Shown one piece after another: positions 2,390 to 45,794 of a stretch of 64,000 nucleotides of DNA. This DNA is from a bacterium. Its GTDB lineage: Bacteria; Sysuimicrobiota; Sysuimicrobiia; Sysuimicrobiales; Segetimicrobiaceae. The notes under the pieces were generated by a model. It did not search any database, was not told the origin of the DNA, and saw only the letters and a program-made list of their open reading frames with translations. The translations under genes and the position numbers were made by a program. Positions within the stretch are counted from its first letter, which is position 1, and each line of letters opens with the position of its first letter. The stretch covers positions 3,312 through 67,311 of the forward strand of contig DASSJF010000038.1 in the NCBI GenBank assembly GCA_035691305.1, read 5' to 3'.

Positions 2390-2435
2390 AACGGCTTCTC
2401 CTCATGTTATCCGAGCGACGGAGGGGACCCCGCCC

Positions 2436-3851
2436 CTACCGCACCTCGCCGGGGCGGAACATCTTGTCGGCCTGCTCCCCGTAGTAGTACTTGTCTACGT
2501 GGTCGCGGCTGATGCGCGTCAGCGCGGTCTTCGGGAACACCGACAGCAGCTTCCAGCCGAGCGTCAGCGAGTCCTGAATGGAGCGGTCGCTGTTGCCTTG
2601 GTTGATGAACTCTTTCTCGAACGAGTCGGCGAACTTCAGGTACAGCCGGTCGTTCTCGGTGAGCGCCTCCTCACCGATGATCGCGACGAGTCGGCGGAGG
2701 TCGAGGCCCTGCGCGTACGCGGAGTAGAGCTGGTCGGCGACCTGCCGGTGGTCCTCGCGCGTGCGGCCCCGTCCGATGCCGTTGTTCATGAGCCGCGAGA
2801 GGCTCGGCAGCGGGTTGATCGGCGGGTAGATGCCCTGCCGGTGGAGCGGCCGCGCCAGCACGAGCTGGCCCTCCGTGATGTAGCCGGTAAGGTCGGCGAT
2901 CGGGTGCGTGATGTCGTCGTCCGGCATTGTGAGGATCGGGAATTGCGTGATCGTGCCCTTCTTGCCCTTGATGCGGCCGGCGCGCTCGTAGATGCTGGCG
3001 AGGTCGGTGTACATGTAGCCGGGGTAGCCGCGGCGCCCGGGGATCTCTTCGCGCGCCGCGCCGATCTCGCGCAGGGCCTCGCAGTAGTTCGTCATGTCGG
3101 TGAGGATGACGAGCACCTGCATGTCGAGCTCGTACGCGAGGTACTCCGCGACGGTGAGCGCGGTCCGCGGTGTCATCAGGCGCTCGATCGTCGGGTCGTC
3201 GGCCAGATTCATGAACACCACGCTGCGCGCGAGGGCCCCCGTCGTCTCGAACTCCTGGATGAAGAACGCGGCCTCGCGCTGAGTGATCCCCATCGCGCCG
3301 AACACGACCGAGAACTGCTCCGCCTCGCCGAGCACTTTCGACTGGCGCGCGATCTGCGCCGCGATCTCGTTCGCGGGCAGGCCGGCGCCGGAGAAGATCG
3401 GCAGCTTCTGGCCCCGGACCAGCGTGTTCATTACGTCGATCGTCGAGATGCCGGTTTGGATGAATTCCGCCGGCTTCTCCCGCGCCACCGGGTTGATCGG
3501 GGCGCCGAGGATCGGCAGGCGCTTCTCGGGGATGATCGGCGGCAGGCCGTCGATCGGATCGCCGAGACCGTTGAACCGCCGGCCGATCATCTCGCGGCTG
3601 ACGCCGATCCGCGCGACGTCCTCGCGCAGGCTGAGCGACGTTTTCGCGAGGTCCATGCCGCGCGTTTCTTCGAACACCTGGATGACCGCGTTTTTCTCCG
3701 AGACTTCGATGACCTGCCCGCCGCGCACGCTGCCGTCCTGCACGTGGATCTCGACGATCGCGCCGTAGGCGAGGTCCCGGGCGCCCTCGACAAACAGCAG
3801 CGGGCCCGAGATGTAGTTGATGCTCGTGTAGCGCTTGGTGGCGAGATCCAT
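2436..3851 (-). CDS. atpB: V/A-type ATP synthase subunit B.
   Basis: [23 protein letters not shown]...[12 protein letters not shown] and the non-catalytic B subunit fold. The start was set at the internal ATG because the Arg-rich N-extension in the ORF track is an artefact. Confidence 0.9.
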
Positions 3852-3852
3852 G

Positions 3853-5679: not shown

Positions 5680-5696
5680 CCCTTCTCCTCCGTCTC

Positions 5697-6014
5697 TCAC
5701 CGCAGCTTGACGGCGAATCCGATGTGCTCCTTCACCAGCCTGGAAATGTACGCCTCTCCGGACTCAAGGTTCGCGCGCGCCGGGGGCAGCGGCACGATCA
5801 GCGGCAGGTCGCGGCCCCGCAGGAGCCGCGTCCGCGCGTCCTCGGTGCCGTGCAGCAGGTCTTCGTTCACCGCGAGCAGCCCGTAGCCGGCCGCGGTCAG
5901 CTCGCGGATCAGCTCGAGCGCCTGCTCGGGCGTGCCCGCCTCGCGGACCTCGACGCCCGCGAGACGGAACCCCGTCGCCGTCTCGGGATCGGTGATCACC
6001 GCGACCTTATACAT
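5697..6014 (-). CDS. atpF: V/A-type ATP synthase subunit F.
   Basis: 105 aa. [23 protein letters not shown] is typical of subunit F. Confidence 0.8.
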
Positions 6015-7032
6015 TCACGATCTCCTGGCGCGCGACGTCCGTCGCAAGCCCGAGCTGCCGCGCGTGCGCGATCACGCGCACGTTGGCGACTTCCGCCGCC
6101 TTGCGCGTGAGGTAGCCGACGACCACGTCGATGCCCAGCGGATCGCCGAGCAGCATCTGCGCGGCCATGCGCTGGACCCCGCGGTCGACGAACCGTTCCA
6201 TCTCGAGCAGGTCTTCCGTGCCCGTCAGATCCACGCCGAGGATCTTCGTGCCCTGGACGTCGGCGATGCTGGTCTGCGGATCGGCGAGTACGAGAAACCG
6301 CTCCCGCGAGATCGCACCGCCCAGCACGAAGAACTGGTCCCGCTCCTCGCGCGGGAGCTCCCGGATCCGCCGCAGACGCAGCGCGGTCTTGAAGTTCGTG
6401 GCGGTGACTTCCGCGCTGAGAAAGCGGCGGAAGCTCGTCTCGCCGTCCCCTTCGCCGTCGGCAACGCGGTAGCCGTACTGCGCGTACGCACGGTCGAGCG
6501 CGAGTTCGACGTCGAGCAGGCCGCCGCTCCGCTGCGCGGCATCCGCGCCTTCCCGCAGCGCCCGGCCCAGCGGATGCATCCAGGTCTGCAGCGTGTCCGC
6601 GATCGCGCGCAGGTCGGGCTGCTCGAGCAGCTCGCGCAGCCGGACCTCGCTGAGCGACCCGCCCGGGTAAAGGGTGGACAGGATGTCGTCGTCGGGCTTG
6701 TCCGTGTGCTTGCCGCGGACGATCGCGCGGATGTTCTGCAGATCATAGCGCAGCAGGACGACCTCGATCTGGCGCCGCTCCGCCCCGTCGGCAAAGCTCA
6801 GAATGCGGCGGGTCGCGTGGTAGAAGTTCTGCGCCAGCGCCTCGTCGATCGCCCGCACGCCGCCGAACCGGCTGAGGGCCTCCTGCAGCTCGGCGTTGTA
6901 CGGGGTGTCGACGAGCGCCTGAATAATCGCGGGGACATCCGGCGCCGCAAGCAGCTCCTCCAGACGCGACGGCGGAAGGAGCTGGGATTTCATGACCTTG
7001 ACCCGCGCGTTTATGTAGGAAAAATCACCCAC
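6007..7032 (-). CDS. atpC: V/A-type ATP synthase subunit C (eukaryotic d-like).
   Basis: 341 aa. MGDFSYINARVKVMKSQLL... matches the NtpC/AtpC family. Confidence 0.85.
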   Translation of the reverse strand: MGDFSYINARVKVMKSQLLPPSRLEELLAAPDVPAIIQALVDTPYNAELQEALSRFGGVRAIDEALAQNFYHATRRILSFADGAERRQIEVVLLRYDLQNIRAIVRGKHTDKPDDDILSTLYPGGSLSEVRLRELLEQPDLRAIADTLQTWMHPLGRALREGADAAQRSGGLLDVELALDRAYAQYGYRVADGEGDGETSFRRFLSAEVTATNFKTALRLRRIRELPREERDQFFVLGGAISRERFLVLADPQTSIADVQGTKILGVDLTGTEDLLEMERFVDRGVQRMAAQMLLGDPLGIDVVVGYLTRKAAEVANVRVIAHARQLGLATDVARQEIVNV

Positions 7033-7035
7033 GCC

Positions 7036-7623
7036 TCACCGGCTCCACAACGTCTCGGCGACCCGGGATACCATCTCCCGCCGGGCGTGGCTCAGGCGGC
7101 TACCGATCGTGTTCTCCACGACCACGCGGCCGTCCGGCGAGGCGACGCGGACACCGTCGGCGACGTCCCGCGCCTCGCGCACCTCGGCGTCGAGTCCGAG
7201 TTCGCGGCACGCGTCGCGAACCGTCTGGACGTCCGCGGGTGCCGTCTCCACCGTGAGGCGGCCGGAGAGGCCCCGCGCCGCCTCGCGCAGCAGCCCGCGG
7301 AGCACCGCGCCGCGCCGCTGCGAGTTGGCCCCGGCCGCGCCGGTGCGCAACTCGGCTTCCGCCTGCTCGAACACTTTGCGGATCGCCTCGTCTTTCGCGG
7401 CCAGCACGAGCGCGGCCGCGCGCAGGCTCGCGGTGCTGGTCGCCCGCGCCCGGGCCTGGGCCTGCTCCGCCTCCACGCGCCGGCGGGCCTCAGCCTCGAT
7501 CTCCTCGGCCTCCCGCGCCGCCGCCGCGGCGACCTCCTCGGCTTTGGCCTGCGCCTCGTTCAGCGCCTGGTCTTTCTCGACCCGCGCTTCCTGCTCGAGG
7601 AGCTGCATCAGCTGCGTTCCCAC
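7036..7623 (-). CDS. atpE: V/A-type ATP synthase subunit E.
   Basis: 195 aa. An Ala/Glu-rich coiled-coil N-terminus is followed by a globular C-terminus, and the gene sits between K and C in the operon. Confidence 0.7.
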   Translation of the reverse strand: MGTQLMQLLEQEARVEKDQALNEAQAKAEEVAAAAAREAEEIEAEARRRVEAEQAQARARATSTASLRAAALVLAAKDEAIRKVFEQAEAELRTGAAGANSQRRGAVLRGLLREAARGLSGRLTVETAPADVQTVRDACRELGLDAEVREARDVADGVRVASPDGRVVVENTIGSRLSHARREMVSRVAETLWSR

Positions 7624-7641
7624 GCGACCGCTCCGCCCGCC

Positions 7642-7965
7642 CTAGATCTTGCCGTACAGAAAGAACGCGATGACGAATCCGAAGATGACCAGCGTCTCGG
7701 GGATCACGAGCAGGATCAGCATCGTGCCGAACATCTCCGGCCGCTCGGCGATGACGCCCGCCGCCGCTCCGCCGATACGCGACTGCGCGATGCCGGTGCC
7801 GACCGCGCCGAGGCCGATCGCGAGGCCCGCGCCCACGCCCAAGAGGCCCGCCCCCGTGCCGGCCCCCGCCGCCTGCGCGGCCTGCTGCGCGCCCGCTCCC
7901 ATTGCCAAGAGCATCAGCCCGACGGCCGTCAGGCCGAGAACCGTCCACACTTTCCGAGACTTCAC
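7642..7965 (-). CDS. atpK: V/A-type ATP synthase proteolipid subunit K (c-ring).
   Basis: The C-terminal 107 aa of ORF 7642..8382 are Gly/Ala-rich TM helices ending VIPETLVIFGFVIAFFLYGKI. A GTG start follows GGTGGAG and gives a GTGA overlap with the atpI stop. Confidence 0.75.
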   Translation of the reverse strand: MKSRKVWTVLGLTAVGLMLLAMGAGAQQAAQAAGAGTGAGLLGVGAGLAIGLGAVGTGIAQSRIGGAAAGVIAERPEMFGTMLILLVIPETLVIFGFVIAFFLYGKI

Positions 7966-9917
7966 GCTCCACCCCCGCTGCGTTGAAATGGCCGGTACGG
8001 TCGACCGGTGTCCTGGTAGTATTTGAACTTGGAGAAAAACTCGACCCAGTTGAGCCGGGCGGGCTGCAGGATGTGCCCGATGATCGTCAGGCCGAAGAAC
8101 ATGATGTGCGCGACGGCGCCGACGAAAATGCCGATGATCAGCGCGGGCGCCTTCCCGCCGATGGTGTTCGCCACGATGGCGAGGGCGAGCGACGCGACGC
8201 CGACCGCGAAGATTCGGGCGTACGAGATGATCGCGCCGAACGTCGAGATCGATTCCATGATCCACATCGCGCTGCCGAAGCTGGCCGAGAACAGCAGCGA
8301 GAGGAGGAACAGCACCGCGCACCCCAGCATGACGGGGCTGAAGAACGACGACGGCAGCACGTGCACCTGCGTCGCGAGCCACAGGAACACCGTCGTCCCG
8401 CCGAAGAGAAGCGCCGCCGCCTCGAGAAATTCCGTCCGCTCACGGTGCCGGACGGCCTTCACCATCTCCATGAAGAGCCCGAGGTAGACCTGGGCGAGGC
8501 CGAAGCCCACCGACAGATAGAGGTAGGTATTGATCCCCTCGAGCCGGTCGAAAATCGGATGGAAGCCCGGGAACAGCCGCTGCGGAAGATCGCCGAAGAA
8601 CTCGCCGAAGACGATCCCGAAGAGGAACGTGAACGAGGTCATCCACGTGAGCAGCGCGACGACGCGCCGCATCACGACCGGCGTCAGCGTGAACCCGAAG
8701 TCCATGCCGGCCAGAACGACGCGCCACGGCTTCCCCGTCCGCGCCTTGCCCGCGAGCCACAGCGTGATTCCCAGCAGGAACAGGCCGTATCCGACGTCCC
8801 CGATGATGAGACCGACCCAGAGCGGCATCGAAATCGCGAACCAGATCGTCGGATCGAGCGTTCCGTACTTCGGCGGGTCGAAGATCGCGAGGAACATCTC
8901 GAACGGCTTGAGCCATCCGGGGTTGTCGAGCAGCACCGGCACGGCTTCCGCGTGGTGCACGGGGGCCGGCTCGTCGAAGACCATGACGCCGTCCGCGAAT
9001 CGCTTCTTGAGGCCCTCGCGCACCGCGGCGACGCGGGCGCTGGGCACCCAGCCGTATAGCACGAACGCGTACCGCGACTGCGGCGTCTGCGCCATCAGCT
9101 CGTAGCGGTGCACCGCGTCCCGCGCCACCACGGCGATCGCCGTCACTTCGGGCCGGTGCCGCCGGCTGAGCTCGATCAGCTGCCGCCGGCAATCCTCGAT
9201 CTCGCCCGGCAGCACGCGCGCCCGCTCCTGGAGGTGGGTCACGGCCTGCGGCAGCGGCATCCCGCGGACGCCGGCGGGCAGGCGGAGTTCGCTCGCCCCG
9301 GCACGGGTCAGCACGGGTCGCACCGCGTCCGCGTCGCGGCGGGCGTACGCCGCCACGACGGCGAGCCGGTGCGCGTCGAGCGCGCGGTTCACCACCTCGA
9401 CCCTGCCCTGCGTCGCCGCGGCCAGTTCGCCGCGCAGCGCCTCGAGCGCGCCCGGCTTCGCGTCGATGAGGAACCCGGCGGCCTCCAGCGTGCGGCTGCC
9501 CTGCAGCGGAGCCAGCAGGGGCGCGAGGATCTCGATCGCGCGCCCGTAGGCCTGGAGGATCTCCTGCTCCTCTTCCGCGTCCAAGAGGCGCCGCGTAAGA
9601 TCCTTGGCCTGCGTCTCCACGGCGTCGAGCCGCGCCCGCAGCGCCTCGGGCGACTGCGTTTCGTACGGTTCGGTGGACACGGGCGGAATCTCGAGGGCCG
9701 GGAGGAGCGCGAGAATCGCCTCGGCGCGGGTGCGCACCGCGTCGATCGTTTCGCGCGCCGCCTGGTCGCGTGCGTCGAGCGGCCGCGGGCCGATGCCGTC
9801 CTCGATCGGCCGGACGTGGTCGACATGCAGGCTGCCGAGGCCCTGAATCGCGCCGGCAACGTCCGCCTGCAGCCGCCGGGGCCCGAGCACGGTCACCCGG
9901 CTCATCGATACGATCAT
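7962..9917 (-). CDS. atpI: V/A-type ATP synthase subunit I (a-subunit, stator/ion channel).
   Basis: 651 aa with an N-terminal cytosolic coiled-coil domain and a C-terminal multi-TM domain. MIVSMSRVTVLG resembles the Thermus MIAPMEKLVL start. An ATGA overlap with the preceding small subunit gene is present. Confidence 0.85.
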   Translation of the reverse strand: MIVSMSRVTVLGPRRLQADVAGAIQGLGSLHVDHVRPIEDGIGPRPLDARDQAARETIDAVRTRAEAILALLPALEIPPVSTEPYETQSPEALRARLDAVETQAKDLTRRLLDAEEEQEILQAYGRAIEILAPLLAPLQGSRTLEAAGFLIDAKPGALEALRGELAAATQGRVEVVNRALDAHRLAVVAAYARRDADAVRPVLTRAGASELRLPAGVRGMPLPQAVTHLQERARVLPGEIEDCRRQLIELSRRHRPEVTAIAVVARDAVHRYELMAQTPQSRYAFVLYGWVPSARVAAVREGLKKRFADGVMVFDEPAPVHHAEAVPVLLDNPGWLKPFEMFLAIFDPPKYGTLDPTIWFAISMPLWVGLIIGDVGYGLFLLGITLWLAGKARTGKPWRVVLAGMDFGFTLTPVVMRRVVALLTWMTSFTFLFGIVFGEFFGDLPQRLFPGFHPIFDRLEGINTYLYLSVGFGLAQVYLGLFMEMVKAVRHRERTEFLEAAALLFGGTTVFLWLATQVHVLPSSFFSPVMLGCAVLFLLSLLFSASFGSAMWIMESISTFGAIISYARIFAVGVASLALAIVANTIGGKAPALIIGIFVGAVAHIMFFGLTIIGHILQPARLNWVEFFSKFKYYQDTGRPYRPFQRSGGGA

Positions 9918-10263
9918 GCCTGGCTCCCGAGAACCTCGCGGACGACGAGCTCGACCGCCTTGGCGCGCCGCTCCTCCGCCTGCTTGCGGATGGCCGCGGC
10001 TTCCGCCTCGGCGCGCGCCACGATTTCCTTCCCGATGCGCTCGGCCTCGCGTGACGCCTCCGCGGAGGCGCCGGACGCGATGTCGCGGGCGCGGTCGCGG
10101 GCCCGCGCGCGCAGTTCCTCGCCCTGCCGCTGTGCCTGTTCCACGCGCCGGGTAGCCTCGGCGCGAGCGTCGGCGACCTGGCGCTGCAGCTCCTGTTCGC
10201 GCTGCGCGATCTCGCGGAGCAGGGCTTCACCCGATTGACTGCCGGGGGAATCGTGTGCGGTCA
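9914..10263 (-). CDS. V/A-type ATP synthase small coiled-coil subunit (G/H-type), the first gene of the operon.
   Basis: MTAHDSPGSQSGEALLREIAQREQELQRQVADARAEA... is about 116 aa and Ala/Glu/Arg-rich. The ATG follows AGGAG. The upstream part of ORF 9914..10405 was rejected. Confidence 0.6.
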
Positions 10264-10284
10264 TCTCGCATGCTCCTGCGTGGA

Positions 10285-10338
10285 ACAAAAAAATACCGTC
10301 CGTAGACCGTGGTTGAGCCGCCTGCCGGCCCGCGGACG
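10285..10338 (-). promoter_or_regulatory. Terminator-like hairpin plus U7 tract inside the atp 5'UTR (candidate attenuator).
   Basis: On the minus-strand RNA, CGUCCG...CGGACG (perfectly complementary 6-mers flanking a GC-rich interior) is followed by GUAUUUUUUUG. It lies about 25 nt upstream of the atpG Shine-Dalgarno and downstream of the predicted promoter. Confidence 0.35.
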
Positions 10339-10360
10339 TTGGCGCTCCACTGCGGCCAAC

Positions 10361-10389
10361 ATCGTAACAACCCCCCAAAATGGTGTCAA
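10361..10389 (-). promoter_or_regulatory. Sigma70/SigA-like promoter of the V/A-ATPase operon.
   Basis: The minus-strand sequence is TTGACA-N17-TACGAT (CTTGACAccattttggggggttgtTACGAT), about 100 nt upstream of the atpG ATG. Confidence 0.4.
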
Positions 10390-10411
10390 GAAAGAAGCCA
10401 AACAACGGTTC

Positions 10412-10500
10412 GACGACGCCGTCGCATACCGACGGCTAGTCCCGCACCGGGGCGACGCCGTCGCATGCCGACGCCTAGTCCCGCGCCGGGGCGACGCCGG
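10412..10500. repeat. Tandem 39-bp GC-rich imperfect-palindrome repeat (about 2.3 copies) between the nuoN stop and the atp promoter.
   Basis: GACGACGCCGTCGCATACCGACGGCTAGTCCCGCACCGG / GGCGACGCCGTCGCATGCCGACGCCTAGTCCCGCGCCGG / GGCGACGCCGG. Each unit contains the self-complementary GCGACG-G-CGTCGC core. Confidence 0.6.
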
Positions 10501-10503
10501 TGT

Positions 10504-11985
10504 CTAGATCTTCAACAGCAGTGATGCCGCCTGGGCGAAGCGGATGAGCGCATCCGGGAAGAACCCCGGCACGAGCGCGCCCGCGGCCGTCACGGCCAGC
10601 ACGCCCCGCAACAGCGGCGTCTCGACCGGCCCGCCGAGCGGCTCGCCGGCCGGAGGTGCCGCCGGTTCGCCGCCGGCGGCGGGCATCTGCCACATCGCCC
10701 GGATGACGCCCACGTAGTAGTAGAGCGACACCACGCTGTTGATGATGCCGACCACGGCCAGCCAGAGGAACCCGGACTGAATCGCGGCGCTGAAGAGAAA
10801 CACTTTTCCCCAGAACAACGCGGTCGGCGGAATGCCTGTGAGGGCGAGCATGAACGCGGCCATCAGCGTCGCCGAAAACGGCGATCGCTGGCCGAGCCCG
10901 GCGTAGCCCGCGATCGCGTCCGTGCCGCTCGCCCGGGCTACGGCGATGGCGACGGTGAAGGCGCCGATGTTGGTGAAGAGGTAGCCCATCAGGTAGAACA
11001 GCAGCGCCGAGACCCCGGAGCCGAGCACCCCCGGCCCGGCGGAGAGCGCCACGACGCCGATCAGCATGTACCCGGCGTGCGCAATCGAGCTGTACGCGAG
11101 CATCCGCTTGATGTTCGACTGCGACAGCGCGAGCAGATTGCCGAACGACATGGAGAGCACGGAGATCGCGGCGACGATGCCGACCCACGCCCCCGGCGGC
11201 AGCGCCACGTAGAGCATCCGCAGCAGGGCGGCGAAACCTGCGGCCTTGCTGGCCACCGACAGAAAGGCGACGATCGGCGTCGGGGCGCCTTCGTACACGT
11301 CCGGCGTCCACTGGTGGAACGGCACCGCGGAGATCTTGAACCCGAACCCGGCGAGGATCAGCACGACCGCGACCACGAGGAACCCCGGCTGGGCGGCTCC
11401 GAGCCGCGAGGCCAGCGCGTAGATGTTCGTCGTGCCGGTTGCCCCGTACAGGTACGTGAAGCCGTACAGCATCACGGCCGACGCCGCGGCGCCGTAGAAG
11501 AAGTACTTCACACCGGCCTCGCTGCTCTTCCGGTTCGCCTTCAGGGCGCCGGCGAGCACATACGAGATCAGCGACACCCACTCGATCGCGAGGAACAGCA
11601 CGATCAGATCGGCCGCCGCCGCCATCGCGAACAGGCCGAGCACCATGAACACGATGAGTACGTAGATGTCGCCCTCGTGCGCCGTCGGGTGGTCCCGGAA
11701 AAAGTCCATCGCCGCGGCGATGACGAGAATCGCGCTCAGGATCGCGACCACCTTGAAGAAGCCGGCGAACGGGTCGACCGCGTAGGTGTCGAACACCACG
11801 AGGTACCGCGGGCCGCCGATCAGCACCGCGGAGGGGCCGAGCGTGAACGCCAGGCCGATGATCGCCGTCCACCCCACGAGGCGGCGGTCTTCCGGCGCGA
11901 CGATCAAGTCGATCACGAGCAGGCCGAGGGCCAGGATCCCGACCGTGATCTCGGGCAGCAGGGGCCGGAGGTCGATTCCCGTCAC
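10504..11985 (-). CDS. nuoN: NADH-quinone oxidoreductase subunit N (antiporter-like).
   Basis: 493 aa, multi-TM, typical NuoN/ND2 sequence (…AFLSVASKAAGFAALLRMLY…). Confidence 0.9.
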   Translation of the reverse strand: MTGIDLRPLLPEITVGILALGLLVIDLIVAPEDRRLVGWTAIIGLAFTLGPSAVLIGGPRYLVVFDTYAVDPFAGFFKVVAILSAILVIAAAMDFFRDHPTAHEGDIYVLIVFMVLGLFAMAAAADLIVLFLAIEWVSLISYVLAGALKANRKSSEAGVKYFFYGAAASAVMLYGFTYLYGATGTTNIYALASRLGAAQPGFLVVAVVLILAGFGFKISAVPFHQWTPDVYEGAPTPIVAFLSVASKAAGFAALLRMLYVALPPGAWVGIVAAISVLSMSFGNLLALSQSNIKRMLAYSSIAHAGYMLIGVVALSAGPGVLGSGVSALLFYLMGYLFTNIGAFTVAIAVARASGTDAIAGYAGLGQRSPFSATLMAAFMLALTGIPPTALFWGKVFLFSAAIQSGFLWLAVVGIINSVVSLYYYVGVIRAMWQMPAAGGEPAAPPAGEPLGGPVETPLLRGVLAVTAAGALVPGFFPDALIRFAQAASLLLKI

Positions 11986-11995
11986 CGGCCGGCCC

Positions 11996-13504
11996 TCATC
12001 GCACGAGGTTGAGGATGCCCAGCATTGCCGCGTTGATCGTGTTGACGACCGGCGCGGGATAGAGCCCGACGGCGATCATCAACGCGGCCAGCGGCGCGAG
12101 CGTCCACGCCTCACGACCGTCCAGATCGGGGAGTCCGGCCCACTTCGCGTTCAGCGGCCCCCAGAAGATGCGGTAGATCGTCCAGAGGAAGAACGCGACC
12201 GTGATCACGACGCCGACGAGCGACACGACGGTCAGCGCCGGATAGACCTGGTAGGCGCCGAGGAAAATCGAGAACTCCGCCACGAACCCCATCAGCCCCG
12301 GCAGACCGAGCGACGCCAGCATCGCCAGCATCGTGAGTCCCGTGTACACCGGGAGGCGCTCCCACAGGCCGCCGAAATCGTTCACGCCGCGGGTGTGCGC
12401 CCGGTAGTCGTAGATCACGCCGACGAGGAAGAACAGCGCCCCGGTGATCACGCCGTGCGCCAGCATCTGCATCGTCGCGCCGTTCAGGGCGATCGCCGCG
12501 GCGTTGCGCAGCGCCGGCTGCCCTTCCGCGGCGGCCGCCGCGGCGACGCCGAGCATCACGTAGCCCATGTGGTTGACGCTCGAATAGGCGACGAGCTTCT
12601 TCAGATCCGTCTGCGCCATCGCCACCAGCGCGCCGTAGACGGCCGCGATCGCGGCGAGAACCGCCACCATGCCCGCCATGAGGTGGAAGGCGCCCGGCAG
12701 CAGCGGCAGCAGGATACGCACGAAGCCGTAGGTGCCGAGCTTCAGGAGGATCGCGGCCAGCAGAACGCTGCCGGCGGTCGGCGCCTCGACGTGCGCGTCC
12801 GGAAGCCAGGTGTGGAACGGGAACATCGGCACCTTGATGGCGAAGCCGAGGAAAAAGCCCCAGAACGCCAGGGTGGCGAGGTGCAGGTCCCCCGCCAGCG
12901 GCTTCTGCTGGAAGAGCGCCACTATGTCGAACGTCCGCGGCGAGGAGTGGAAGTACACGATCAGGATCGCCAGCAGCATCGCCAGCGAGCCGACCAGCGT
13001 GTACAGGAAAAACTTGACCGCGGCGTAGACCCGGCGCGGCCCGCCCCAGACGCCGATGATGAAGTACATCGGGATGAGGCTGACCTCCCAGAACACGTAG
13101 AACAGAAAGAAGTCAAGCGCCAAGAACACGCCGAGCATCCCGGTCTCGAGCAGCAGAAACAGCATCATGTACTCTTTCGGCCGGAGATCCACGCGCCACG
13201 AGTACACGACGCACAGGAGCGTGAGCAGCGTCGTCAGCACCACGAGCGGCAGGCTGAGGCCGTCGACGGCCAGATGGTACGTCGCGCCGAGGGACGGAAT
13301 CCAGCGCGCCTGCTCGGTCAGCTGCAGAGTCCCCGCGCGGCCGAAGTCGAACGCGGCCGCCGCCCACACCGAGGCGAGGAAGTCCGCGATCGCCGCGGCG
13401 AGGGCGACGAGACGGATCGTGCGTACCTGCCCGCGCGGCACGGCGAGCAGCGCGGCGGCGCCGGCGGCGGGGATCCAGAGGACGAGGCTCAGCACGCCGT
13501 TCAC
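11996..13504 (-). CDS. nuoM: NADH-quinone oxidoreductase subunit M (antiporter-like).
   Basis: The C-terminal about 502 aa of ORF 11996..15184 are NuoM/ND4-like (…FFLFYVFWEVSLIPMYFIIGVWGG…). A GTG start gives a GTGA overlap with the nuoL stop, and the long N-extension was rejected. Confidence 0.85.
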   Translation of the reverse strand: MNGVLSLVLWIPAAGAAALLAVPRGQVRTIRLVALAAAIADFLASVWAAAAFDFGRAGTLQLTEQARWIPSLGATYHLAVDGLSLPLVVLTTLLTLLCVVYSWRVDLRPKEYMMLFLLLETGMLGVFLALDFFLFYVFWEVSLIPMYFIIGVWGGPRRVYAAVKFFLYTLVGSLAMLLAILIVYFHSSPRTFDIVALFQQKPLAGDLHLATLAFWGFFLGFAIKVPMFPFHTWLPDAHVEAPTAGSVLLAAILLKLGTYGFVRILLPLLPGAFHLMAGMVAVLAAIAAVYGALVAMAQTDLKKLVAYSSVNHMGYVMLGVAAAAAAEGQPALRNAAAIALNGATMQMLAHGVITGALFFLVGVIYDYRAHTRGVNDFGGLWERLPVYTGLTMLAMLASLGLPGLMGFVAEFSIFLGAYQVYPALTVVSLVGVVITVAFFLWTIYRIFWGPLNAKWAGLPDLDGREAWTLAPLAALMIAVGLYPAPVVNTINAAMLGILNLVR

Positions 13505-15372
13505 CACACCAGCCTGACGACGACGATGAGGACGACGCCGAGGAACACGATCAGCAGATAGGTCTCTTCGCGCCCGGTCTGCAGATAGCGCAGGCCGAGC
13601 CCGAACCACCGGGCCAGCCAGCCGATCAGGTTCACGAGGCCGTCGACGACGTGGCGGTCGAACAACCCGGCGAGCCGCATCACGACGCCGCCGATTCCGA
13701 GGAAGACCCAGGCATAGAGGTCGTCGACGAAGTAGCGCCGCGCGAGCAGCGTATACAGCCACGGCAGCGCCTGCCGCAGCGACTCGGACGGCACGACGCG
13801 CCAGACATAGATCGCCGCGGCCGCGACCCAACCGGCGACGGCGATCGCGATCGACCCGAGGAGCAGGCCGAAGTTCGGCGGCGCCGGCTCGACGCCGGGG
13901 AAGTTGATGAACTTCTCGAACGGGTTGCCGAGCGACTCGGCGCCGATCCAGCCGAGAAACACCGCGAAGACGGCGAGAATCACGAGGGGCGCGACCATCA
14001 CGGCGGGGCTCTCGTGCGGACCGCCGTGCCCGTGCGCGGCCGCCGCGTGGGGATCGCCGCCGCGGTACGTGCCGGCAAACGTGTACCAGAGGAGGCGGCC
14101 CATGTACAGCGACGTGAGGAACGCCCCCGCCGCACCGACCGCCCACAACGCCCGGTTGTGCGCAAACGCCGCGGCCAGGATCTGATCCTTGCTGAAGAAT
14201 CCGGCGAACGGTGGAATGCCGGTCAGCGCGAGCGTCGCGGCGACGAACGTCCAGGTGGTCCACGGCAGGTACCGGGCCAATCCGCCCATCTGCTTCATGT
14301 CGTTGGTCGCGACGGCGTGGATCACGCTCCCGGCGCCGAGGAAGAGCAGCGCCTTGAAGAAGGCGTGCGTGATGAGGTGGAACATGCCGGCGGTGTAGCC
14401 GAGAACGCCGAGGCCGAGCATCATGTAGCCGAGCTGGCTCATGGTCGAGTACGCCAGCACGCGTTTGATGTCGTTCTCGACCACCCCCATCGTCGCCGCG
14501 GCCAGCGCGGTGACCCCGCCGATCCAGGCGACGACGGTCAGTCCCGCCTGGCCCGTCGTGAACAGGAAGAGCGGATAGGTGCGGGCGACGAGGTAGACTC
14601 CGGCGGCGACCATCGTCGCAGCGTGGATCAGCGCGCTGACCGGTGTCGGGCCCTCCATCGCGTCGGGCAGCCAGACGTGCAGCGGGACCTGGGCCGACTT
14701 GCCGACCGCGCCGCCGAAGACCAAGATGGCCGCGGCGGTCAGGAGCGGCCCGGCGAGCGAGCCGGTGTGGATGCCCTTGAACACTTCGTCGAACCGCAAC
14801 GAGCCCGTGTGGAGGAAGATGATCAGGATGCCGATCATCATCGAGAAGTCGCCGACGCGGGTCGTGATGAACGCCTTGAGCGCCGCCTTCGCCGCGGCCG
14901 GCCGTTCGAACCAGAACCCGATCAGCAGGTAGGAGCACAGGCCGACGAGCTCCCAGCCGGCGTAGATGAACAGAAAGTTGTCGGCCAGGACCAGGAACAG
15001 CATCGAGAACTGGAACAGCGACAGGTACGCGAAGAACCGCGGGTAGTGCTCGTCGCCGGCCATGTAGCCGACCGAATAGATCGTGATGAGTGACGAGACC
15101 ACGCCGACCATCGCCAGCATGATCGCGCTCAGCGGATCGACGACGAAGCCGACCGTGATCGGCCGGCCGCCGAGCACCGCCCACGTATAGGTGATATCGG
15201 CACGCGCCCCGCCGGCCACCTCGCCGAGCACGACCAGGCCGCCGAGCCCCGCCAGCACGATGCCGGCGATCGAGACGTAGGCGCCGCGGCCCCGGAGGCG
15301 CGGCCCGACGGCCGTGATCGTCGCGAACGCCGCGAGCGGCAGCAGCGGGATGATCCAGGCGATGTGGGTCAC
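13501..15372 (-). CDS. nuoL: NADH-quinone oxidoreductase subunit L (antiporter-like, long horizontal helix).
   Basis: 623 aa. MTHIAWIIPLLPLAAF... with NuoL/ND5 motifs. Confidence 0.9.
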   Translation of the reverse strand: MTHIAWIIPLLPLAAFATITAVGPRLRGRGAYVSIAGIVLAGLGGLVVLGEVAGGARADITYTWAVLGGRPITVGFVVDPLSAIMLAMVGVVSSLITIYSVGYMAGDEHYPRFFAYLSLFQFSMLFLVLADNFLFIYAGWELVGLCSYLLIGFWFERPAAAKAALKAFITTRVGDFSMMIGILIIFLHTGSLRFDEVFKGIHTGSLAGPLLTAAAILVFGGAVGKSAQVPLHVWLPDAMEGPTPVSALIHAATMVAAGVYLVARTYPLFLFTTGQAGLTVVAWIGGVTALAAATMGVVENDIKRVLAYSTMSQLGYMMLGLGVLGYTAGMFHLITHAFFKALLFLGAGSVIHAVATNDMKQMGGLARYLPWTTWTFVAATLALTGIPPFAGFFSKDQILAAAFAHNRALWAVGAAGAFLTSLYMGRLLWYTFAGTYRGGDPHAAAAHGHGGPHESPAVMVAPLVILAVFAVFLGWIGAESLGNPFEKFINFPGVEPAPPNFGLLLGSIAIAVAGWVAAAAIYVWRVVPSESLRQALPWLYTLLARRYFVDDLYAWVFLGIGGVVMRLAGLFDRHVVDGLVNLIGWLARWFGLGLRYLQTGREETYLLIVFLGVVLIVVVRLVW

Positions 15373-15379
15373 CGCGCGG

Positions 15380-15691
15380 TCACCACTTCATCAGGTTGAT
15401 CTCGTCGACGTAGACCGTCTCGAGGGTCCGGTACGCGGCCAGCACGAGCGCCAGGCCGACCGCGGCTTCGCACGCCGCGAGTGTGATCACGATCAGCGCG
15501 AAGATCTGGCCCTGCATCGCCCCCGGCGCGGCGTACTTGTTGAAGGCGACCAGGTTGATGTTGGCGGCGTTCAGCATCAATTCGACGCCCATCAGGATCG
15601 TCACGGCGTTGCGGCGCGTGACCACCGCGAACAGCCCGAGCGCGAAGAGCAGCGCGCTCACGACGAGGTAGTGCGCGAGGCCCGGCATCAA
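15380..15691 (-). CDS. nuoK: NADH-quinone oxidoreductase subunit K.
   Basis: 103 aa with 3 TM helices. MMPGLAHYLVVSALLFALGLFAVVTRRNAVTILMGVELMLNAANINLVAF is classic NuoK/ND4L. Confidence 0.85.
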   Translation of the reverse strand: MMPGLAHYLVVSALLFALGLFAVVTRRNAVTILMGVELMLNAANINLVAFNKYAAPGAMQGQIFALIVITLAACEAAVGLALVLAAYRTLETVYVDEINLMKW

Positions 15692-16182
15692 TCTTCCCGC
15701 CGCGCGATCATGATCGCGCCCATCAGCGAGATCAGCAGGACGATCGACGTACCTTCGAAGACCAGAATGTTCTGACGGAGAAAGCTCTGCCCGATCGCCC
15801 CGGGCGTGTACGGCGGCAGCGCGCCGGCGCCCGCGGGCCAGCCGGTGCGCGTCGAGACGGCGATCAGCAGCGCGGCCATCGCTGCGGCGACCGCGGTGCC
15901 GATCGCAGCCTGCTCGTTGCGCTGCCGGCCCCCGAGCCCCGTGCCGCCTTCGGTCAGCATGATCGCGAAGAGGATCAGCACGGTGATCGCGCCGGCGTAG
16001 ATCAGGACCTGGATGCCGGCCACGAACTCGGCGTTCAGCAGAATGTACAGGCCGGTGACGCCGAGGAACGCTGGCACGAGGGCCGCGGCGCTGTGCACGA
16101 TGTTGCGGCTGGCGACCACCACCACGCCGGCGCCCAGCGTGACGGCGGCCAGCACGTAGAAGGCGATCGCCTCGCCGGTCAC
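15688..16182 (-). CDS. nuoJ: NADH-quinone oxidoreductase subunit J.
   Basis: The C-terminal 164 aa of ORF 15688..16755 (VTGEAIAFYVLAAVTLGAGVVVVASRNIVHSAAALV...) are NuoJ/ND6-like. The GTG start gives a GTGA overlap with the nuoH stop, and the Arg-rich N-extension was rejected. Confidence 0.8.
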   Translation of the reverse strand: MTGEAIAFYVLAAVTLGAGVVVVASRNIVHSAAALVPAFLGVTGLYILLNAEFVAGIQVLIYAGAITVLILFAIMLTEGGTGLGGRQRNEQAAIGTAVAAAMAALLIAVSTRTGWPAGAGALPPYTPGAIGQSFLRQNILVFEGTSIVLLISLMGAIMIARRED

Positions 16183-17159
16183 GGGTGTCCCACCACCACG
16201 ACGAACGCGGTCACGACGAGGTTGAGCACGGACACCGGGATCAGGACCTTCCAGGAAAAGTTCAGCATCTGGTCGATCCGGAAGCGCGGATACGTCCACC
16301 GCACCCACATGAAGACGAAGATCAACGCGTACAGCTTGATGACGAACCACAGCACCGGCGGCAGCACCGGCCCACGCCAGCCGCCGAGGAACAGCGTAAC
16401 CGCCATCGCCGCCATCGCGAACATCTCGCCGTATTCGCCGAGCTGAAACAGCGCGAACCGCATCCCGCTGTATTCGGAGAAGTAGCCGGCGACCAGCTCG
16501 CTCTCCGCCTCGACCAGGTCGAACGGCACGCGGTTCACCTCGGCGATCGCCGCGATGAGGAAGATCAGAAAGGCCACGGGCTGGGCCACGATGTACCACA
16601 GACGCGCCTGGCCGTTGACGATCGTTACGGTCGACAGCGACCCCGCCATCAACGCGACCGTCACGAGCGCGAGCCCGATGGGGATCTCGTAGGTGACCAT
16701 CTGCGCGGCCGATCGCATGCCGCCGAGCAGGGCGTATTTGTTGTTCGATCCCCATCCCGCCATCAGGATGCCGATCACGACCAGCGACGAGGTCGCCGCG
16801 AAGTACAGCACGCCGATGTTCAGATCGCGGAAGATCAGCGGCCCGGACCGCGTGGTGCCGAACGGAATGACGACGTAGTCGAGCAGCGCCGCCAGCGGCA
16901 CGACGACGACCGCGCTCGCGAAGATGAGGCGGTCGGCGCGGTTCGGGACGATGTGTTCCTTCTGCAGAAGTTTAACCGTGTCGGCCACGGTCTGCAGCAG
17001 GCCCTGCGGCCCGACGTGCTTCGGCCCGAGGCGGCTCTGCATCCACGCGCTGATCTTGCGTTCGAGCAGCACGCCGAACATGACCGCGATGAACGCCACC
17101 GCGGAAAAGATGATGATCGTGCCGACGAACGCGCGGAGGATCTCCCAGAGCCAGTCCAT
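16179..17159 (-). CDS. nuoH: NADH-quinone oxidoreductase subunit H.
   Basis: 326 aa. ...QSRLGPKHVGPQGLLQTVADTVKLLQKE... and ...EVNRVPFDLVEAESELVAGYFSEYSG... are hallmark NuoH/ND1 motifs. Confidence 0.9.
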   Translation of the reverse strand: MDWLWEILRAFVGTIIIFSAVAFIAVMFGVLLERKISAWMQSRLGPKHVGPQGLLQTVADTVKLLQKEHIVPNRADRLIFASAVVVVPLAALLDYVVIPFGTTRSGPLIFRDLNIGVLYFAATSSLVVIGILMAGWGSNNKYALLGGMRSAAQMVTYEIPIGLALVTVALMAGSLSTVTIVNGQARLWYIVAQPVAFLIFLIAAIAEVNRVPFDLVEAESELVAGYFSEYSGMRFALFQLGEYGEMFAMAAMAVTLFLGGWRGPVLPPVLWFVIKLYALIFVFMWVRWTYPRFRIDQMLNFSWKVLIPVSVLNLVVTAFVVVVGHP

Positions 17160-17165
17160 CGCCGC

Positions 17166-17522
17166 CTAAGTCCACTCCAGGGCGCCGCGGCGCCACGCGT
17201 AGGCGAGGCCGAGCACCAGGATCACAAGAAACACCAACATCTCCCAGAACGCGAGCGGGCCGAGGCTGCGCGCGACCACCGCCCAGGGGTACAGGTAGAT
17301 GATCTCGACGTCAAACACGACGAAGACGAGCGAGAACAGGTAGTAGCGAACGTGAAACTGCGACCACGCCTGGCCGATCGTAGGCACGCCCGACTCGTAG
17401 GTCTCGAACTTCTGCGGGTAGTCGCTGCGCGGCGAGATCAGCCAGATGATGAGCAGAGGGAGCGAGACCATCCCCGCGCCGACGAGCGCGAAGATGGCGA
17501 CGTAGCCCCAATCGAGCAGCAT
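17166..17522 (-). CDS. nuoA: NADH-quinone oxidoreductase subunit A.
   Basis: 118 aa, NuoA/ND3-like (…FETYESGVPTIGQAWSQFHVRYYLFSLVFVVFDVEIIYLYPWAV…), preceded by the Shine-Dalgarno AAGGAGGGA. Confidence 0.85.
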   Translation of the reverse strand: MLLDWGYVAIFALVGAGMVSLPLLIIWLISPRSDYPQKFETYESGVPTIGQAWSQFHVRYYLFSLVFVVFDVEIIYLYPWAVVARSLGPLAFWEMLVFLVILVLGLAYAWRRGALEWT

Positions 17523-17630
17523 CGTCGTCCCTCCTTAGAACGTGTTGCGGCGCGGACGCGTGGCGCGAACCCGGTTCTCAGATCAGTTGGTCGCCGGCTC
17601 TGCGAAGTTTTTGGCGATGAACCGCGGCTG

Positions 17631-17660
17631 ATGGTAGTATCCGTCGCCGAAGCGTGTCAA
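17631..17660 (-). promoter_or_regulatory. Sigma70/SigA-like promoter upstream of nuoA.
   Basis: The minus-strand sequence is TTGACA-N18-TACCAT in the 160-bp gap between the yvcK stop and nuoA, so the nuo membrane-arm cluster has its own promoter. Confidence 0.45.
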
Positions 17661-17682
17661 CCCTGCCGGGGCGGCGCCGAGT

Positions 17683-19116
17683 TTACAGCGGCGCGACGTT
17701 CGCGCCGCCTTCCGCCGCCCGCTCCCCCAGAGGCCCCCGCGGGGCCGAGCCGCCGAACTCGGCTGAGGCCGTGCGGCGGAGCTCCGGCGACACCGTCGAC
17801 AGCAGGCGCAGCAGCACGGCCGTCACCTTCCGCGCGTCGTGCCGGACCAGCCCGTCCTCGCTCAACAGATCCTCGGCAACGCAGCGCACGCCCAGCGATT
17901 CGACCGCGGCGACGTCGGCCTCCACCGGCTCCGCGTGCTCCTGCGCGTACCGCGCGAGCAATTCGGGGCTGCGCGGCCGGCTCGTGTTGATCAGCGCGTA
18001 GTCGAAGAGGCCGCCCCCGCCCTGCTCGAGCAGCACGCGGACGTGGTCGGACGCCGTGAACCCGCGGGTTTCGCCGTGCTGCGTCATCACATTGCAGACG
18101 TAGACCTTCATCGCCGGCGACCGGCGAATCGCCTCCACCACGCCCTCCACGAGCAGGTTGGGCAGCAGGCTGGTGTAAAGGCTGCCGGGGCCGATCACGA
18201 CCATGTCCGCGTCCGCGATCGCTTCGAGAACGTCCGCGAGCGGCGGCACCGACGACGGGTTGAGGTAGACGCGGCGGACGGAGCGGCCGGCCCCTGTGAT
18301 CGCCGACTCACCCTCTACGACGCCGCCGTCCTCGAACTCCGCGCACAGCGTGACGTCGTGGAGGGTCGTCGGCAGCACGCGGCCCCGGATGGCGAGCACC
18401 TTGCCGCTCTCCTTGACCGCGGTCTCGAGATCGCCCGCGACCTGCGACATGCTGGCGATGAAGAGATTGCCGAAGCTGTGCCCGTCGAGCTCGCCGCCTT
18501 TGAAGCGATATTCGAAGAGTTGGGTCATCAGCGGTTCCGCCTCCGCGAGCGCGACGAGGCAGTTGCGGATGTCGCCGGGCGGCAGGATGCCCTGCTCGCG
18601 CCGCAGCCGGCCCGAGGAGCCGCCGTCGTCGAACACCGTGACGACCGCCGTGATGTTGGTCGACACTCTCTTCAGGCCGCGCAGCAGCGTGCCGAGACCC
18701 GTCCCGCCGCCGAGCGCGACGATCTTCGGCCCCCGTTGGAGGGCGCGCTGCTGCACGAGCAGCTCAACCAGGCGGGGATCGCCGCGCGGCAAGAACACGT
18801 CGACGATCGACCGGATCGTGGCGCGCAGCCCGTAGGCGATGAGCCCGAGACCGCCGAGCAGCAGCGCGACGCCGCCCAACATCGGCGACAGCACATGCCC
18901 GGTCACCGCGTAGGCGACGCCCACCGCGCGGATGATGGCGAGCTCGAGAACGCCGAGCAGCTTGACGTCCACGATCAGGGCCACGCCGGTGCTGACCAGC
19001 AGCACCCCGACGGCGATGAGAAGGATGTAGCGCTTGACGCCGAGCCCCGGCTCGAACCACCGGATCCAGTGCCGCACCGCGCTGCGCGCGCGGCCGGCGC
19101 CGCCGTTGAGGCTCAT
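17683..19116 (-). CDS. yvcK: YvcK/CofD-like gluconeogenesis factor (UPF0052) with an N-terminal membrane-anchor extension.
   Basis: KIVALGGGTGLGTLLRGLK...TAVVTVFDDGGSSGRLR is the YvcK signature. An ATGA overlap with the rapZ stop sets the start at MSLNGG. The first 130 aa or so contain 3-4 predicted TM helices, and the N-terminal 281 aa of ORF 17683..19959 were rejected. Confidence 0.8.
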   Translation of the reverse strand: MSLNGGAGRARSAVRHWIRWFEPGLGVKRYILLIAVGVLLVSTGVALIVDVKLLGVLELAIIRAVGVAYAVTGHVLSPMLGGVALLLGGLGLIAYGLRATIRSIVDVFLPRGDPRLVELLVQQRALQRGPKIVALGGGTGLGTLLRGLKRVSTNITAVVTVFDDGGSSGRLRREQGILPPGDIRNCLVALAEAEPLMTQLFEYRFKGGELDGHSFGNLFIASMSQVAGDLETAVKESGKVLAIRGRVLPTTLHDVTLCAEFEDGGVVEGESAITGAGRSVRRVYLNPSSVPPLADVLEAIADADMVVIGPGSLYTSLLPNLLVEGVVEAIRRSPAMKVYVCNVMTQHGETRGFTASDHVRVLLEQGGGGLFDYALINTSRPRSPELLARYAQEHAEPVEADVAAVESLGVRCVAEDLLSEDGLVRHDARKVTAVLLRLLSTVSPELRRTASAEFGGSAPRGPLGERAAEGGANVAPL

Positions 19117-38006: not shown

Positions 38007-38020
38007 GGCGCTCCCTCCGT

Positions 38021-38659: not shown

Positions 38660-38691
38660 GAGCGGCGCGTCGCCCGGCGTACGCCCGCGCG

Positions 38692-45790: not shown

Positions 45791-45794
45791 TCGT

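Follow-up and report, generated by a model that had tools for sequence, protein, structure and literature searches.

With good probability, the locus described here encodes the membrane arm of a complex I (NDH-1) whose genes are split between loci, in an uncultured soil bacterium of the candidate phylum CSP1-3 (Sysuimicrobiota). Within the window, i.e., the whole 64-kb stretch of DNA that was analyzed, seven close-packed minus-strand genes in the order nuoA-H-J-K-L-M-N occupy positions 10504-17522 with all open reading frames (ORFs) intact. The operon is real, and it most likely constitutes one half of a split gene set of a kind that has precedents rather than a new type of ion pump. We infer that a separate nuoBCDI set is present in the source genome and pairs with the membrane arm encoded here.

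Gene content and transcriptional setting of the operon

The operon and its flanking elements are, in the direction of transcription:

17631..17660, minus strand: candidate sigma-70-like promoter, TTGACA-N18-TACCAT, matching the consensus at 10 of 12 positions and lying some 110 nt ahead of the nuoA start codon
17166..17522, minus strand: nuoA, 118 aa, with the ribosome-binding site AAGGAGG ahead of it; PF00507, 1e-36
16179..17159, minus strand: nuoH, 326 aa; PF00146, 6e-121; NF004741, 358 bits (cut-off 305)
15688..16182, minus strand: nuoJ, 164 aa, GTG start; PF00499, 3e-32
15380..15688, minus strand: nuoK, 102 aa; PF00420, 1e-29; NF004320, 107 bits (cut-off 57)
13501..15372, minus strand: nuoL, 623 aa, full length; NF005141 over residues 2-621, 678 bits (cut-off 556)
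11996..13507, minus strand: nuoM, 502-503 aa, GTG start at 13504 or 13507; TIGR01972, 571 bits (cut-off 264)
10504..11985, minus strand: nuoN, 493 aa, last gene of the operon; TIGR01770, 370 bits (cut-off 333)
10397..10499, minus strand: intergenic region 3' of nuoN, with 2.2 copies of a 39-bp unit at 10414-10499, followed by a terminator-like hairpin and T-rich tail (10414-10397)
10361..10389, minus strand: promoter-like site TTGACA-N17-TACGAT with an upstream TG, a separate candidate promoter for the downstream V/A-type ATPase operon
1754-10144: V/A-type ATPase genes, downstream of the nuo operon

The products of the seven co-oriented ORFs match the Pfam families of NuoA, NuoH, NuoJ and NuoK and, three times, that of the antiporter-like subunits (PF00361), the latter being told apart by NCBIfam as NuoL, NuoM and NuoN; NuoA and NuoJ pass the Pfam models and score under the NCBIfam equivalog cut-offs. 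These matches, together with the junctions, bear out the cluster lacking nuoB, nuoC, nuoD and nuoI that the first-pass annotation had proposed. Its reading of the junctions also held when they were examined in the sequence: nuoA and nuoH are separated by 6 nt, the GTG start of nuoJ lies on the nuoH stop in a GTGA overlap, and nuoL and nuoM share a second GTGA overlap, which extends to 7 nt if nuoM starts at the upstream GTG. The remaining junctions are a 1-nt overlap of the nuoK ATG with the nuoJ stop (TGATG) and gaps of 7 nt (nuoK/nuoL) and 10 nt (nuoM/nuoN). There is consequently no space for nuoB, nuoC or nuoD between nuoA and nuoH, nor for nuoI between nuoH and nuoJ.

The operon is set between TCA-cycle genes on one side and an A/V-type ATP synthase operon on the other. 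Scanning positions 9900-17900 (8 kb) for promoter-like sites yielded two, as compared to 0.4 expected by chance. One is the candidate ahead of nuoA, where the scan and a YvcK/CofD-family match of the adjacent upstream gene product agree with the promoter-like site and the yvcK neighbor previously noted; the other lies ahead of the ATPase operon and, as context, shows where the nuo transcription unit ends. A terminator role of the hairpin after nuoN is only suggested. The repeat was rejected as a structured RNA or terminator, given that its fold is no more stable than that of shuffled controls (z = -0.8) and that Rfam has no match there; over the 64-kb window, Rfam recognized a single tRNA and nothing else.

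Conservation of functional residues

In complex I structures, the TM1-2 and TM5-6 loops of NuoH line the quinone cavity shared with NuoB/D. Taking as reference those residues conserved in at least 90% of 75 NuoH sequences from clusters with linked BCD and I, NuoH of the window retains 77 of 78, among them both quinone-site loops, namely E33, R34, Q41, R43, G45 and P46 in TM1-2 and E207, R210, D214, E217, E219 and E221 in TM5-6. Full-length alignments of the protein were obtained with E. coli NuoH, T. elongatus NdhA and T. thermophilus Nqo8, the scores for NdhA and E. coli NuoH being equal (262 bits each). NuoK keeps both membrane glutamates (E36 and E74), NuoJ 11 of 13 conserved residues with Y62 and E143 present, and NuoA 19 of the 22 residues conserved in BCDI-linked clusters, including D71. 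Both checks called for by the first-pass annotation, that of the NuoH quinone site and that of the NuoA/J/K membrane carboxylates, thus came out in favor of conservation. The loop motif YECG of NuoA is changed to YESG, and this replacement of the conserved loop Cys by Ser counts against the split-set reading.

The Lys/Glu/His set of the three antiporter-like subunits is likewise kept: NuoL retains 132 of 136 conserved residues (including E141, K225, H250, K340, K395, D550 and D572) as well as the C-terminal stretch corresponding to the lateral helix, NuoM 75 of 79 (including E141, K256 and E411) and NuoN 59 of 64 (including E135, K217, K247 and K394). With quinone-cavity loops in NuoH, carboxylates in NuoA/J/K, and the Lys/Glu/His residues and NuoL extension in place, the seven predicted proteins have the appearance of a functional membrane arm of complex I.

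Other identities were rejected. The presence of NuoH, NuoA and NuoJ is incompatible with a Mrp (Mnh/Pha) antiporter, whose models scored 140-314 bits against cut-offs of 540-1100 and whose MrpE/F/G families are not found in neighboring genes. Relatives of group 4 hydrogenases (Mbh, Mbx, Hyf, Ech, FHL) were dismissed since the window holds no NuoB/D-like ORF and the Hyf and Mbh models scored far under their cut-offs, and F420H2 dehydrogenase (Fpo) on the basis of its scores (FpoH 322, cut-off 475; FpoK 114, cut-off 145; FpoL 490, cut-off 1050) and the bacterial context.

Conservation of the operon in related genomes

An identical NuoH is encoded on eleven independent ENA/Logan metagenome contigs from different samples, and the gene order is the same on all six of these that were displayed. 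The block rapZ-yvcK-nuoAHJKLMN-V/A-ATPase is present in every relative inspected down to a NuoH identity of 63%, the values being 88% (L007), 85% (L095/96), 67% (L093/94), 64-65% (L046, L097, L099 and L101-103) and 63% (L008), but in L008 no ATPase genes occur within the 2.8 kb after nuoN that were fetched. Three of these loci, L008, L093 and L094, belong to genomes named as CSP1-3 (Sysuimicrobiota). The synteny comparison that had been suggested earlier therefore shows the nuoAHJKLMN order to be kept down to 63% NuoH identity. Relative to L007, dN/dS ranges from 0.04 to 0.18 over all seven genes, with the lowest value for nuoA (0.04); judged by these substitution ratios, the genes are under strong purifying selection.

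An unusual gene order taken alone might reflect either a mis-assembly that lost nuoBCD and nuoI or a degenerating operon. The probability of this explanation is close to nil: the eleven contigs with identical NuoH and the common order in the six displayed show that the arrangement is not an assembly artefact and counter the idea that contiguous nuoBCDI genes were hidden by mis-assembly, while the order kept among relatives, the intact ORFs and the low dN/dS values argue against decay.

Search for the peripheral-arm genes

Searching all six-frame ORFs of at least 60 aa with phmmer, using queries from seven linked clusters, detected no NuoB, NuoC, NuoD or NuoI homologues in the 64-kb window, and no NuoE/F/G families were detected when most of the other called genes were compared with Pfam, five his-operon genes (34729-38695) having been named from sequence only. 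Hence, peripheral-arm genes are absent within 10.5 kb downstream and 46 kb upstream of the operon. The approximately 7 kb beyond the right end of the window carry no nuo genes either, but genes for an M48 peptidase, TatD and an oxidoreductase, followed by relaxase/T4SS genes; for the left end, no contigs carrying its terminal genes, by which the window might be extended, are on record.

In the ±10 kb flanks of the related loci L007, L008, L046, L069 and L086, nuoB/C/D/I genes were found in L086 only. A profile search of a 5.8-billion-protein set for a NuoD of this lineage returned, among the best 120 matches, proteins of Dehalococcoidia or of ordinary ABCD clusters. JGI metagenomes were scanned with a two-gap, high-GC and thus codon-biased pattern for 11-subunit-type NuoD, and the 80 resulting loci were sorted by the order of their genes, by clustering of NuoD and by tetranucleotide similarity, the last of which gave no discrimination; none of the 80 was attributable to CSP1-3. 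Clusters of the type (E)F-A-B-C-D-x-G without H/J-N (L145 and L121) were considered as partner and turned out to belong to Desulfobaccales/Syntrophobacterales. The other loci comprised lone ndhH-like genes, which we take to be cyanobacterial, A-B-C-D-I-H... clusters, or loci without attribution.

The absence of peripheral-arm genes from the window and the approximately 7 kb to its right, the operon's own candidate promoter and its position next to an ATP synthase operon would fit a stand-alone ion-translocating module devoid of a NuoB/D-type quinone module, either Mrp-like or docked to an unrelated redox partner. We regard such a module as highly improbable, and the stand-alone NuoH-anchored pump with a different partner, which the first-pass annotation had offered as one alternative, received no positive support. 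The quinone-cavity loops of NuoH and the NuoA loop are conserved as in BCDI-linked enzymes, and it is difficult to account for this conservation, under strong purifying selection, unless a quinone module is present. Moreover, MrpE/F/G are absent, the Mrp, Hyf and Mbh models score far under their cut-offs, and no gene for an alternative redox partner adjoins the operon in relatives. To our knowledge, a stand-alone NuoAHJKLMN module has no characterized precedent.

Comparison with known complex I gene arrangements

Cyanobacterial and chloroplast NDH-1 (PDB 6hum, 6nbq) likewise has its genes scattered over several loci. However, the cyanobacterial groups ndhA-I-G-E and ndhC-K-J keep I together with H, and B and C together with A, whereas the split observed here runs exactly along the boundary between membrane and peripheral arm. 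This exact boundary had been recognized from the start, yet the rarity then ascribed to it was overstated, as precedents exist in Chloroflexi, in marine actinomycetes and in metagenome loci, the last showing A-C-D-H-J-K-L-M-N and A-B-C-D-H-J... orders with B and/or I missing from the cluster.

For cultured Chloroflexi (Anaerolineae), a location of nuoBCDI away from the genes of the membrane arm is described (PMC7117926, citing Chadwick et al., 2018, ISME J 12:2668). Similarly, the membrane-arm genes of the window form one operon, and nuoBCDI are absent from cluster and window. By contrast, the Chloroflexi type as described there contains two nuoM genes (nuoLM1M2N), and its nuoC and nuoD are fused (PMC7117926), whereas here nuoL is followed by one NuoM-class and one NuoN-class gene. 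Among the loci retrieved, L069, a Chloroflexi genome, has contiguous AHJKLMN, and in L086 nuoAHJK occupy one strand, the opposite strand carrying nuoB and a nuoC-D fusion at a distance of 5 kb; NuoH of both loci is only about 50% identical to that of the window, and the CSP1-3 operon has a conserved neighborhood of its own, with rapZ-yvcK upstream and V/A-ATPase genes downstream.

The nearest relatives of all seven proteins outside CSP1-3 are found in the 11-subunit complex I (nuoABCDHIJKLMN without nuoEFG) known from Clostridia, Zixibacteria, Ignavibacteria, Dehalococcoidia and others (Moparthi and Hagerhall, 2011, PMC3144371), with NuoH identities of 49-58% and the top summed scores for Zixibacteria and Ignavibacteria clusters. 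In these clusters B, C and D lie between A and H, and I between H and J, all of which are absent from the cluster here. The closest NuoH proteins from outside CSP1-3 all derive from clusters with approximately 2.4 kb between A and H, a spacing that fits BCD without EFG and points to an 11-subunit-type ancestry.

Marine actinomycetes (Salinispora, Streptomyces sp. SM17/SM18, Kocuria flava) are reported to carry a partial operon, nuoA-hypothetical-nuoHJKLMN (PMC6676996; Penn and Jensen, 2012, cited there), with the same seven subunits in the same order and without B, C, D, I, E, F and G, as an extra copy accompanying a full nuo operon. It has been suggested for this extra operon that membrane arms compete, and a spare or alternative arm of this sort, in which a complete nuoA-N operon and a partial copy share a single NuoBCDI(EFG) peripheral arm, might be considered for the window as well, given the matching gene content. 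This is unlikely, since the actinomycete operon contains a hypothetical gene between A and H, while A and H are only 6 nt apart here, and since no actinomycete NuoH occurs among the best 80 loci or the best 120 proteins matched, which indicates another operon lineage rather than a close relative.

Copy numbers bear on the same question. PMC11604079 Table S5, for 45 CSP1-3 genomes, counts each of the 11 core subunits (A, B, C, D, H, I, J, K, L, M and N) twice per genome and NuoE, F and G once, these counts being automated KO calls summed over nuo and ndh KOs without gene positions and covering the family Sysuimicrobiaceae only, all from hot-spring or hydrothermal sites. The duplication of H, J, K, L, M and N in these tabulated genomes would agree with a spare membrane arm, but B, C, D and I are duplicated too, which makes sharing needless: as tabulated, the quinone modules suffice for two membrane arms.

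Proposed function of the split gene set

Of the two alternatives originally put forward, peripheral-arm genes encoded elsewhere are favored, because the retained residues are sensible only beside a NuoB/D quinone module, because of the purifying selection seen in dN/dS, and because B, C, D and I are counted twice in the phylum (PMC11604079 Table S5). Following this, we propose that NuoA, H, J and K, which would form the base of the quinone site and the E-channel, and NuoL, M and N, as antiporter-like proton pumps, are expressed from the operon's own promoter, and that a NuoB, C, D and I quinone module supplied from another locus assembles with NuoAHJKLMN. The assembled enzyme would reduce quinone and pump protons in the ordinary way, and it would probably be of the 11-subunit type. 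It is very unlikely, by comparison, that the CSP1-3 membrane arm exists as an independent module with its own transcription and a fixed genetic tie to the A/V-type ATP synthase operon, either accepting different electron-input modules (a non-Nuo partner, or two NuoBCDI sets in which NuoEFG may or may not take part) or pumping ions by itself; if true, this would mean modular complex I assembly and not a simple split operon.

If the split-operon reading is true, its value is limited: CSP1-3/Sysuimicrobiota, an abundant uncultured phylum of soil and hot springs, would keep its membrane-arm genes as a separate operon, the AHJKLMN order having been seen in the soil lineage and in the named CSP1-3 relatives, and the hot-spring Sysuimicrobiaceae being covered by tabulated copy counts. 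No new mechanism is opened, and wide interest would arise only if the unlikely stand-alone or module-swapping reading were true. The split would nonetheless be of use in annotating CSP1-3 genomes and in judging their completeness, and it would add a further natural case in which complex I genes part exactly at the border between modules, in agreement with a modular evolution of the enzyme.

Content and surroundings of the nuo cluster

The window, with a G+C content of about 70% over its whole length, carries seven co-oriented genes whose products were recognized by Pfam as NuoA, NuoH, NuoJ, NuoK and three antiporter-like proteins, the latter being identified as NuoL, NuoM and NuoN by NCBIfam models whose curated cut-offs all three exceed. 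Mrp, Hyf, Mbh and Fpo identities were rejected, as their NCBIfam models score far under their own cut-offs.

Features of the window
1754-27756, single long co-oriented energy-metabolism block: sdhA-sdhB-mdh-sucC-sucD-small membrane protein-rapZ-yvcK-nuoAHJKLMN-V/A-type ATPase operon
10414-10499, 39-bp unit repeated 2.2 times (93% identical), immediately after the nuoN stop
10504-17522, minus strand, nuoAHJKLMN
17683-19116, YvcK/CofD homologue, 477 aa
20054-20395, PF04020 protein ('4 TMS phage holin' family), 113 aa, 4-nt overlap with the rapZ start
28991-29800, MbnB/TglH/ChrH-domain gene (RiPP precursor modification, DUF692-type), adjoining a cobalamin adenosyltransferase gene
44162-47330, tandem pair of LeuA-family genes, 542 and 511 aa (HMGL-like plus LeuA dimerisation domain), flanked by leuB and ilvC
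61948-62020, minus strand, lone tRNA gene, the sole Rfam match in the window

As read from the sequence, nuoA and nuoH are separated by a 6-nt gap, nuoH and nuoJ share a GTGA overlap, nuoJ and nuoK overlap by 1 nt, nuoK and nuoL lie 7 nt apart, nuoL and nuoM overlap by 4 or 7 nt, and nuoM is followed by nuoN after 10 nt; no space for nuoB/C/D or nuoI exists within the cluster. Families and junctions together bear out the membrane-arm-only cluster described in the first-pass annotation. A consensus scan of 9900-17900 returned two promoter-like sites where 0.4 would be expected, one upstream of nuoA, which recovers the putative promoter already named there, and one between nuoN and the following operon.

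Upstream of nuoA, the same strand encodes a long YvcK/CofD homologue, RapZ, the small PF04020 membrane protein, sucD, sucC, mdh, sdhB and sdhA; downstream of nuoN, the tandem repeat and the second promoter-like site precede a complete V/A-type ATPase operon. The other genes of the window are icd, leu/ilv genes, those of a his operon and further unrelated ones. The core of the block order is kept in relatives from CSP1-3, the candidate phylum of the source (L095, L097, L099, L101), and icd and fumarase/sdhCD also adjoin the block in some of them. The window has no other copy of the 39-bp unit, whose predicted fold does not exceed that of shuffled sequence in stability. Since its CofD domain spans residues 132-418, the YvcK/CofD homologue (437-477 aa in relatives) is extended at its N terminus by about 130 aa. 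In Firmicutes and Actinobacteria the gene after rapZ-yvcK is usually whiA; here there is no whiA after the pair and nuoA occupies that place. The PF04020 protein sits beside rapZ in all relatives, and a holin role seems unlikely given the housekeeping context. One of the two LeuA-family genes may encode citramalate synthase. Just past the window's right end, two contigs sharing its last gene (L090, 1305-3844; L091, 195-2734) carry genes for a relaxase (Replic_Relax), a T4SS coupling protein and SSB, and therefore a mobile element flanks the region in some strains; the neighbours differ in L089.

Conservation of the arrangement in CSP1-3

An assembly artefact is refuted by the identical NuoH found on eleven independent ENA/Logan soil contigs; the six shown keep the window's gene order. 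Among the matches listed, a NuoH protein search returned a large soil clade of 80-100% identity and a second tier of 63-68%; 'Armatimonadota bacterium' appears among them because several CSP1-3 genomes carry that NCBI label. The order rapZ-yvcK-nuoAHJKLMN followed by the ATPase operon was found in L007, L046, L093-L097, L099 and L101-L103; the paper describing the phylum lists the L093 and L094 assemblies under p__CSP1-3. L008 (Candidatus Fervidifonticultor quartus) keeps it through nuoN, ATPase genes being absent from the 2.8 kb read past nuoN. The synteny comparison thus gave the same order through nuoN in every relative whose neighbourhood was read. The window accordingly derives from a soil-dwelling CSP1-3 (Sysuimicrobiota) bacterium, and the arrangement is an old, stable CSP1-3 trait.

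Integrity as a complex I membrane arm

All seven genes showed dN/dS values of 0.04-0.18 between the window and L007, a relative with 88% NuoH identity. Each subunit was further aligned with homologues from 55-75 clusters having linked nuoB, C, D and I, and residues at least 90% conserved among these were scored in the window.

Conserved residues kept in the window relative to linked clusters
NuoA, 19/22
NuoH, 77/78
NuoJ, 11/13
NuoK, 12/15
NuoL, 132/136
NuoM, 75/79
NuoN, 59/64

The quinone-cavity residues of NuoH and the membrane carboxylates of NuoK, both singled out in the first-pass annotation, are in place: the NuoH residues kept include the TM1-2 and TM5-6 loops, both NuoK glutamates are present, and so are the Lys/Glu/His sets of NuoL, NuoM and NuoN. 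At residue 44 of NuoA (gene 17166-17522), the TM1-2 loop YECG of NuoA/ND3 reads YESG, the conserved Cys being replaced by Ser. In solved complex I structures, the two NuoH loops line the quinone cavity formed with NuoB and NuoD. An arm that pumps by itself or with a partner other than Nuo proteins would accord with a cluster of membrane-arm genes only, but constraint on these loops is not expected without any NuoB/D partner, and we regard this explanation as very improbable.

Peripheral-arm genes and subunit type

No NuoB, C, D or I homologue was detected in six-frame ORFs of the window using phmmer with queries from seven linked clusters, verified with Pfam; Pfam scans of most of the window's called genes revealed no NuoE, F or G families, and contigs sharing the window's last gene carried no nuo genes beyond its right end. 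The matches listed for a NuoD profile search were dominated by Dehalococcoidia, and scanning JGI metagenomes with a codon-biased NuoD pattern yielded nothing attributable to CSP1-3, the best candidate group proving to be Desulfobaccales.

Among the matches listed, the closest NuoH proteins outside CSP1-3 all lie in clusters with an A-to-H spacing of about 2.4 kb, i.e., BCD without EFG, and hence the membrane arm is probably of the 11-subunit type. In the part of Table S5 of PMC11604079 available to us, automated KO calls for 45 genomes, all Sysuimicrobiaceae and outside the window's own clade, give counts without positions of two copies each for A, B, C, D, H, I, J, K, L, M and N (nuo and ndh KOs summed) and one each for nuoE, F and G. 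Within this family, these counts fit one 14-gene and one 11-gene complement, and with them a quinone module for each membrane arm; for the window's arm they are indirect evidence of peripheral-arm genes at another locus. That the window's arm is instead a spare one, with a single peripheral arm shared, appears unlikely.

Split nuo operons and the favoured explanation

According to PMC7117926 (citing Chadwick et al., 2018), cultured Chloroflexi encode nuoBCDI apart from the operon, with nuoC and nuoD fused. Exactly this reported split is seen in the Anaerolineae locus L086, where nuoAHJK and, 5 kb away, nuoB with a nuoC-D fusion behind it occupy opposite strands. The CSP1-3 case departs from the Chloroflexi one in that only one nuoM is present and the neighbouring genes are constant. 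L086 (1-1323 and 5919-6870) also has two divergent nuoA genes, one heading nuoAHJK, so each half of a split set may own a nuoA copy. Salinispora, Streptomyces and Kocuria carry an extra-copy partial operon, nuoA-hypothetical-HJKLMN (PMC6676996). Gene orders among 80 metagenome loci with 11-subunit-type NuoD include A-B-C-D-I-H..., A-C-D-H-J-K-L-M-N (without nuoB and nuoI), A-B-C-D-H-J-K-L-M-N (without nuoI), lone ndhH-like genes and, in Desulfobaccales, (E)F-A-B-C-D-x-G clusters. Orders lacking B and/or I occur in L169 (2306-12016), L148 and L172, in whose lineages the missing small Fe-S subunits are encoded elsewhere; the peripheral-arm-rich (E)F-A-B-C-D-x-G loci L145 (3-6581) and L121 (326-5122; Desulfobaccales/Syntrophobacterales) have no nuoH or J-N within reach. 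Given the Chloroflexi, actinomycete and metagenome cases, nuo gene splitting, the module boundary included, is not rare, and the earlier view of such a split as unusual is overstated.

To our knowledge, the nuo split in CSP1-3 has not been pointed out before. Of the two possibilities raised in the first-pass annotation, the stand-alone module is disfavoured by the constrained NuoH loops, and peripheral genes encoded elsewhere are favoured: a split operon, with a canonical membrane arm here and the quinone module at another locus, is the best-supported explanation and in our judgement a likely one. NuoAHJKLMN would accordingly pair with a quinone module expressed from a separate locus.
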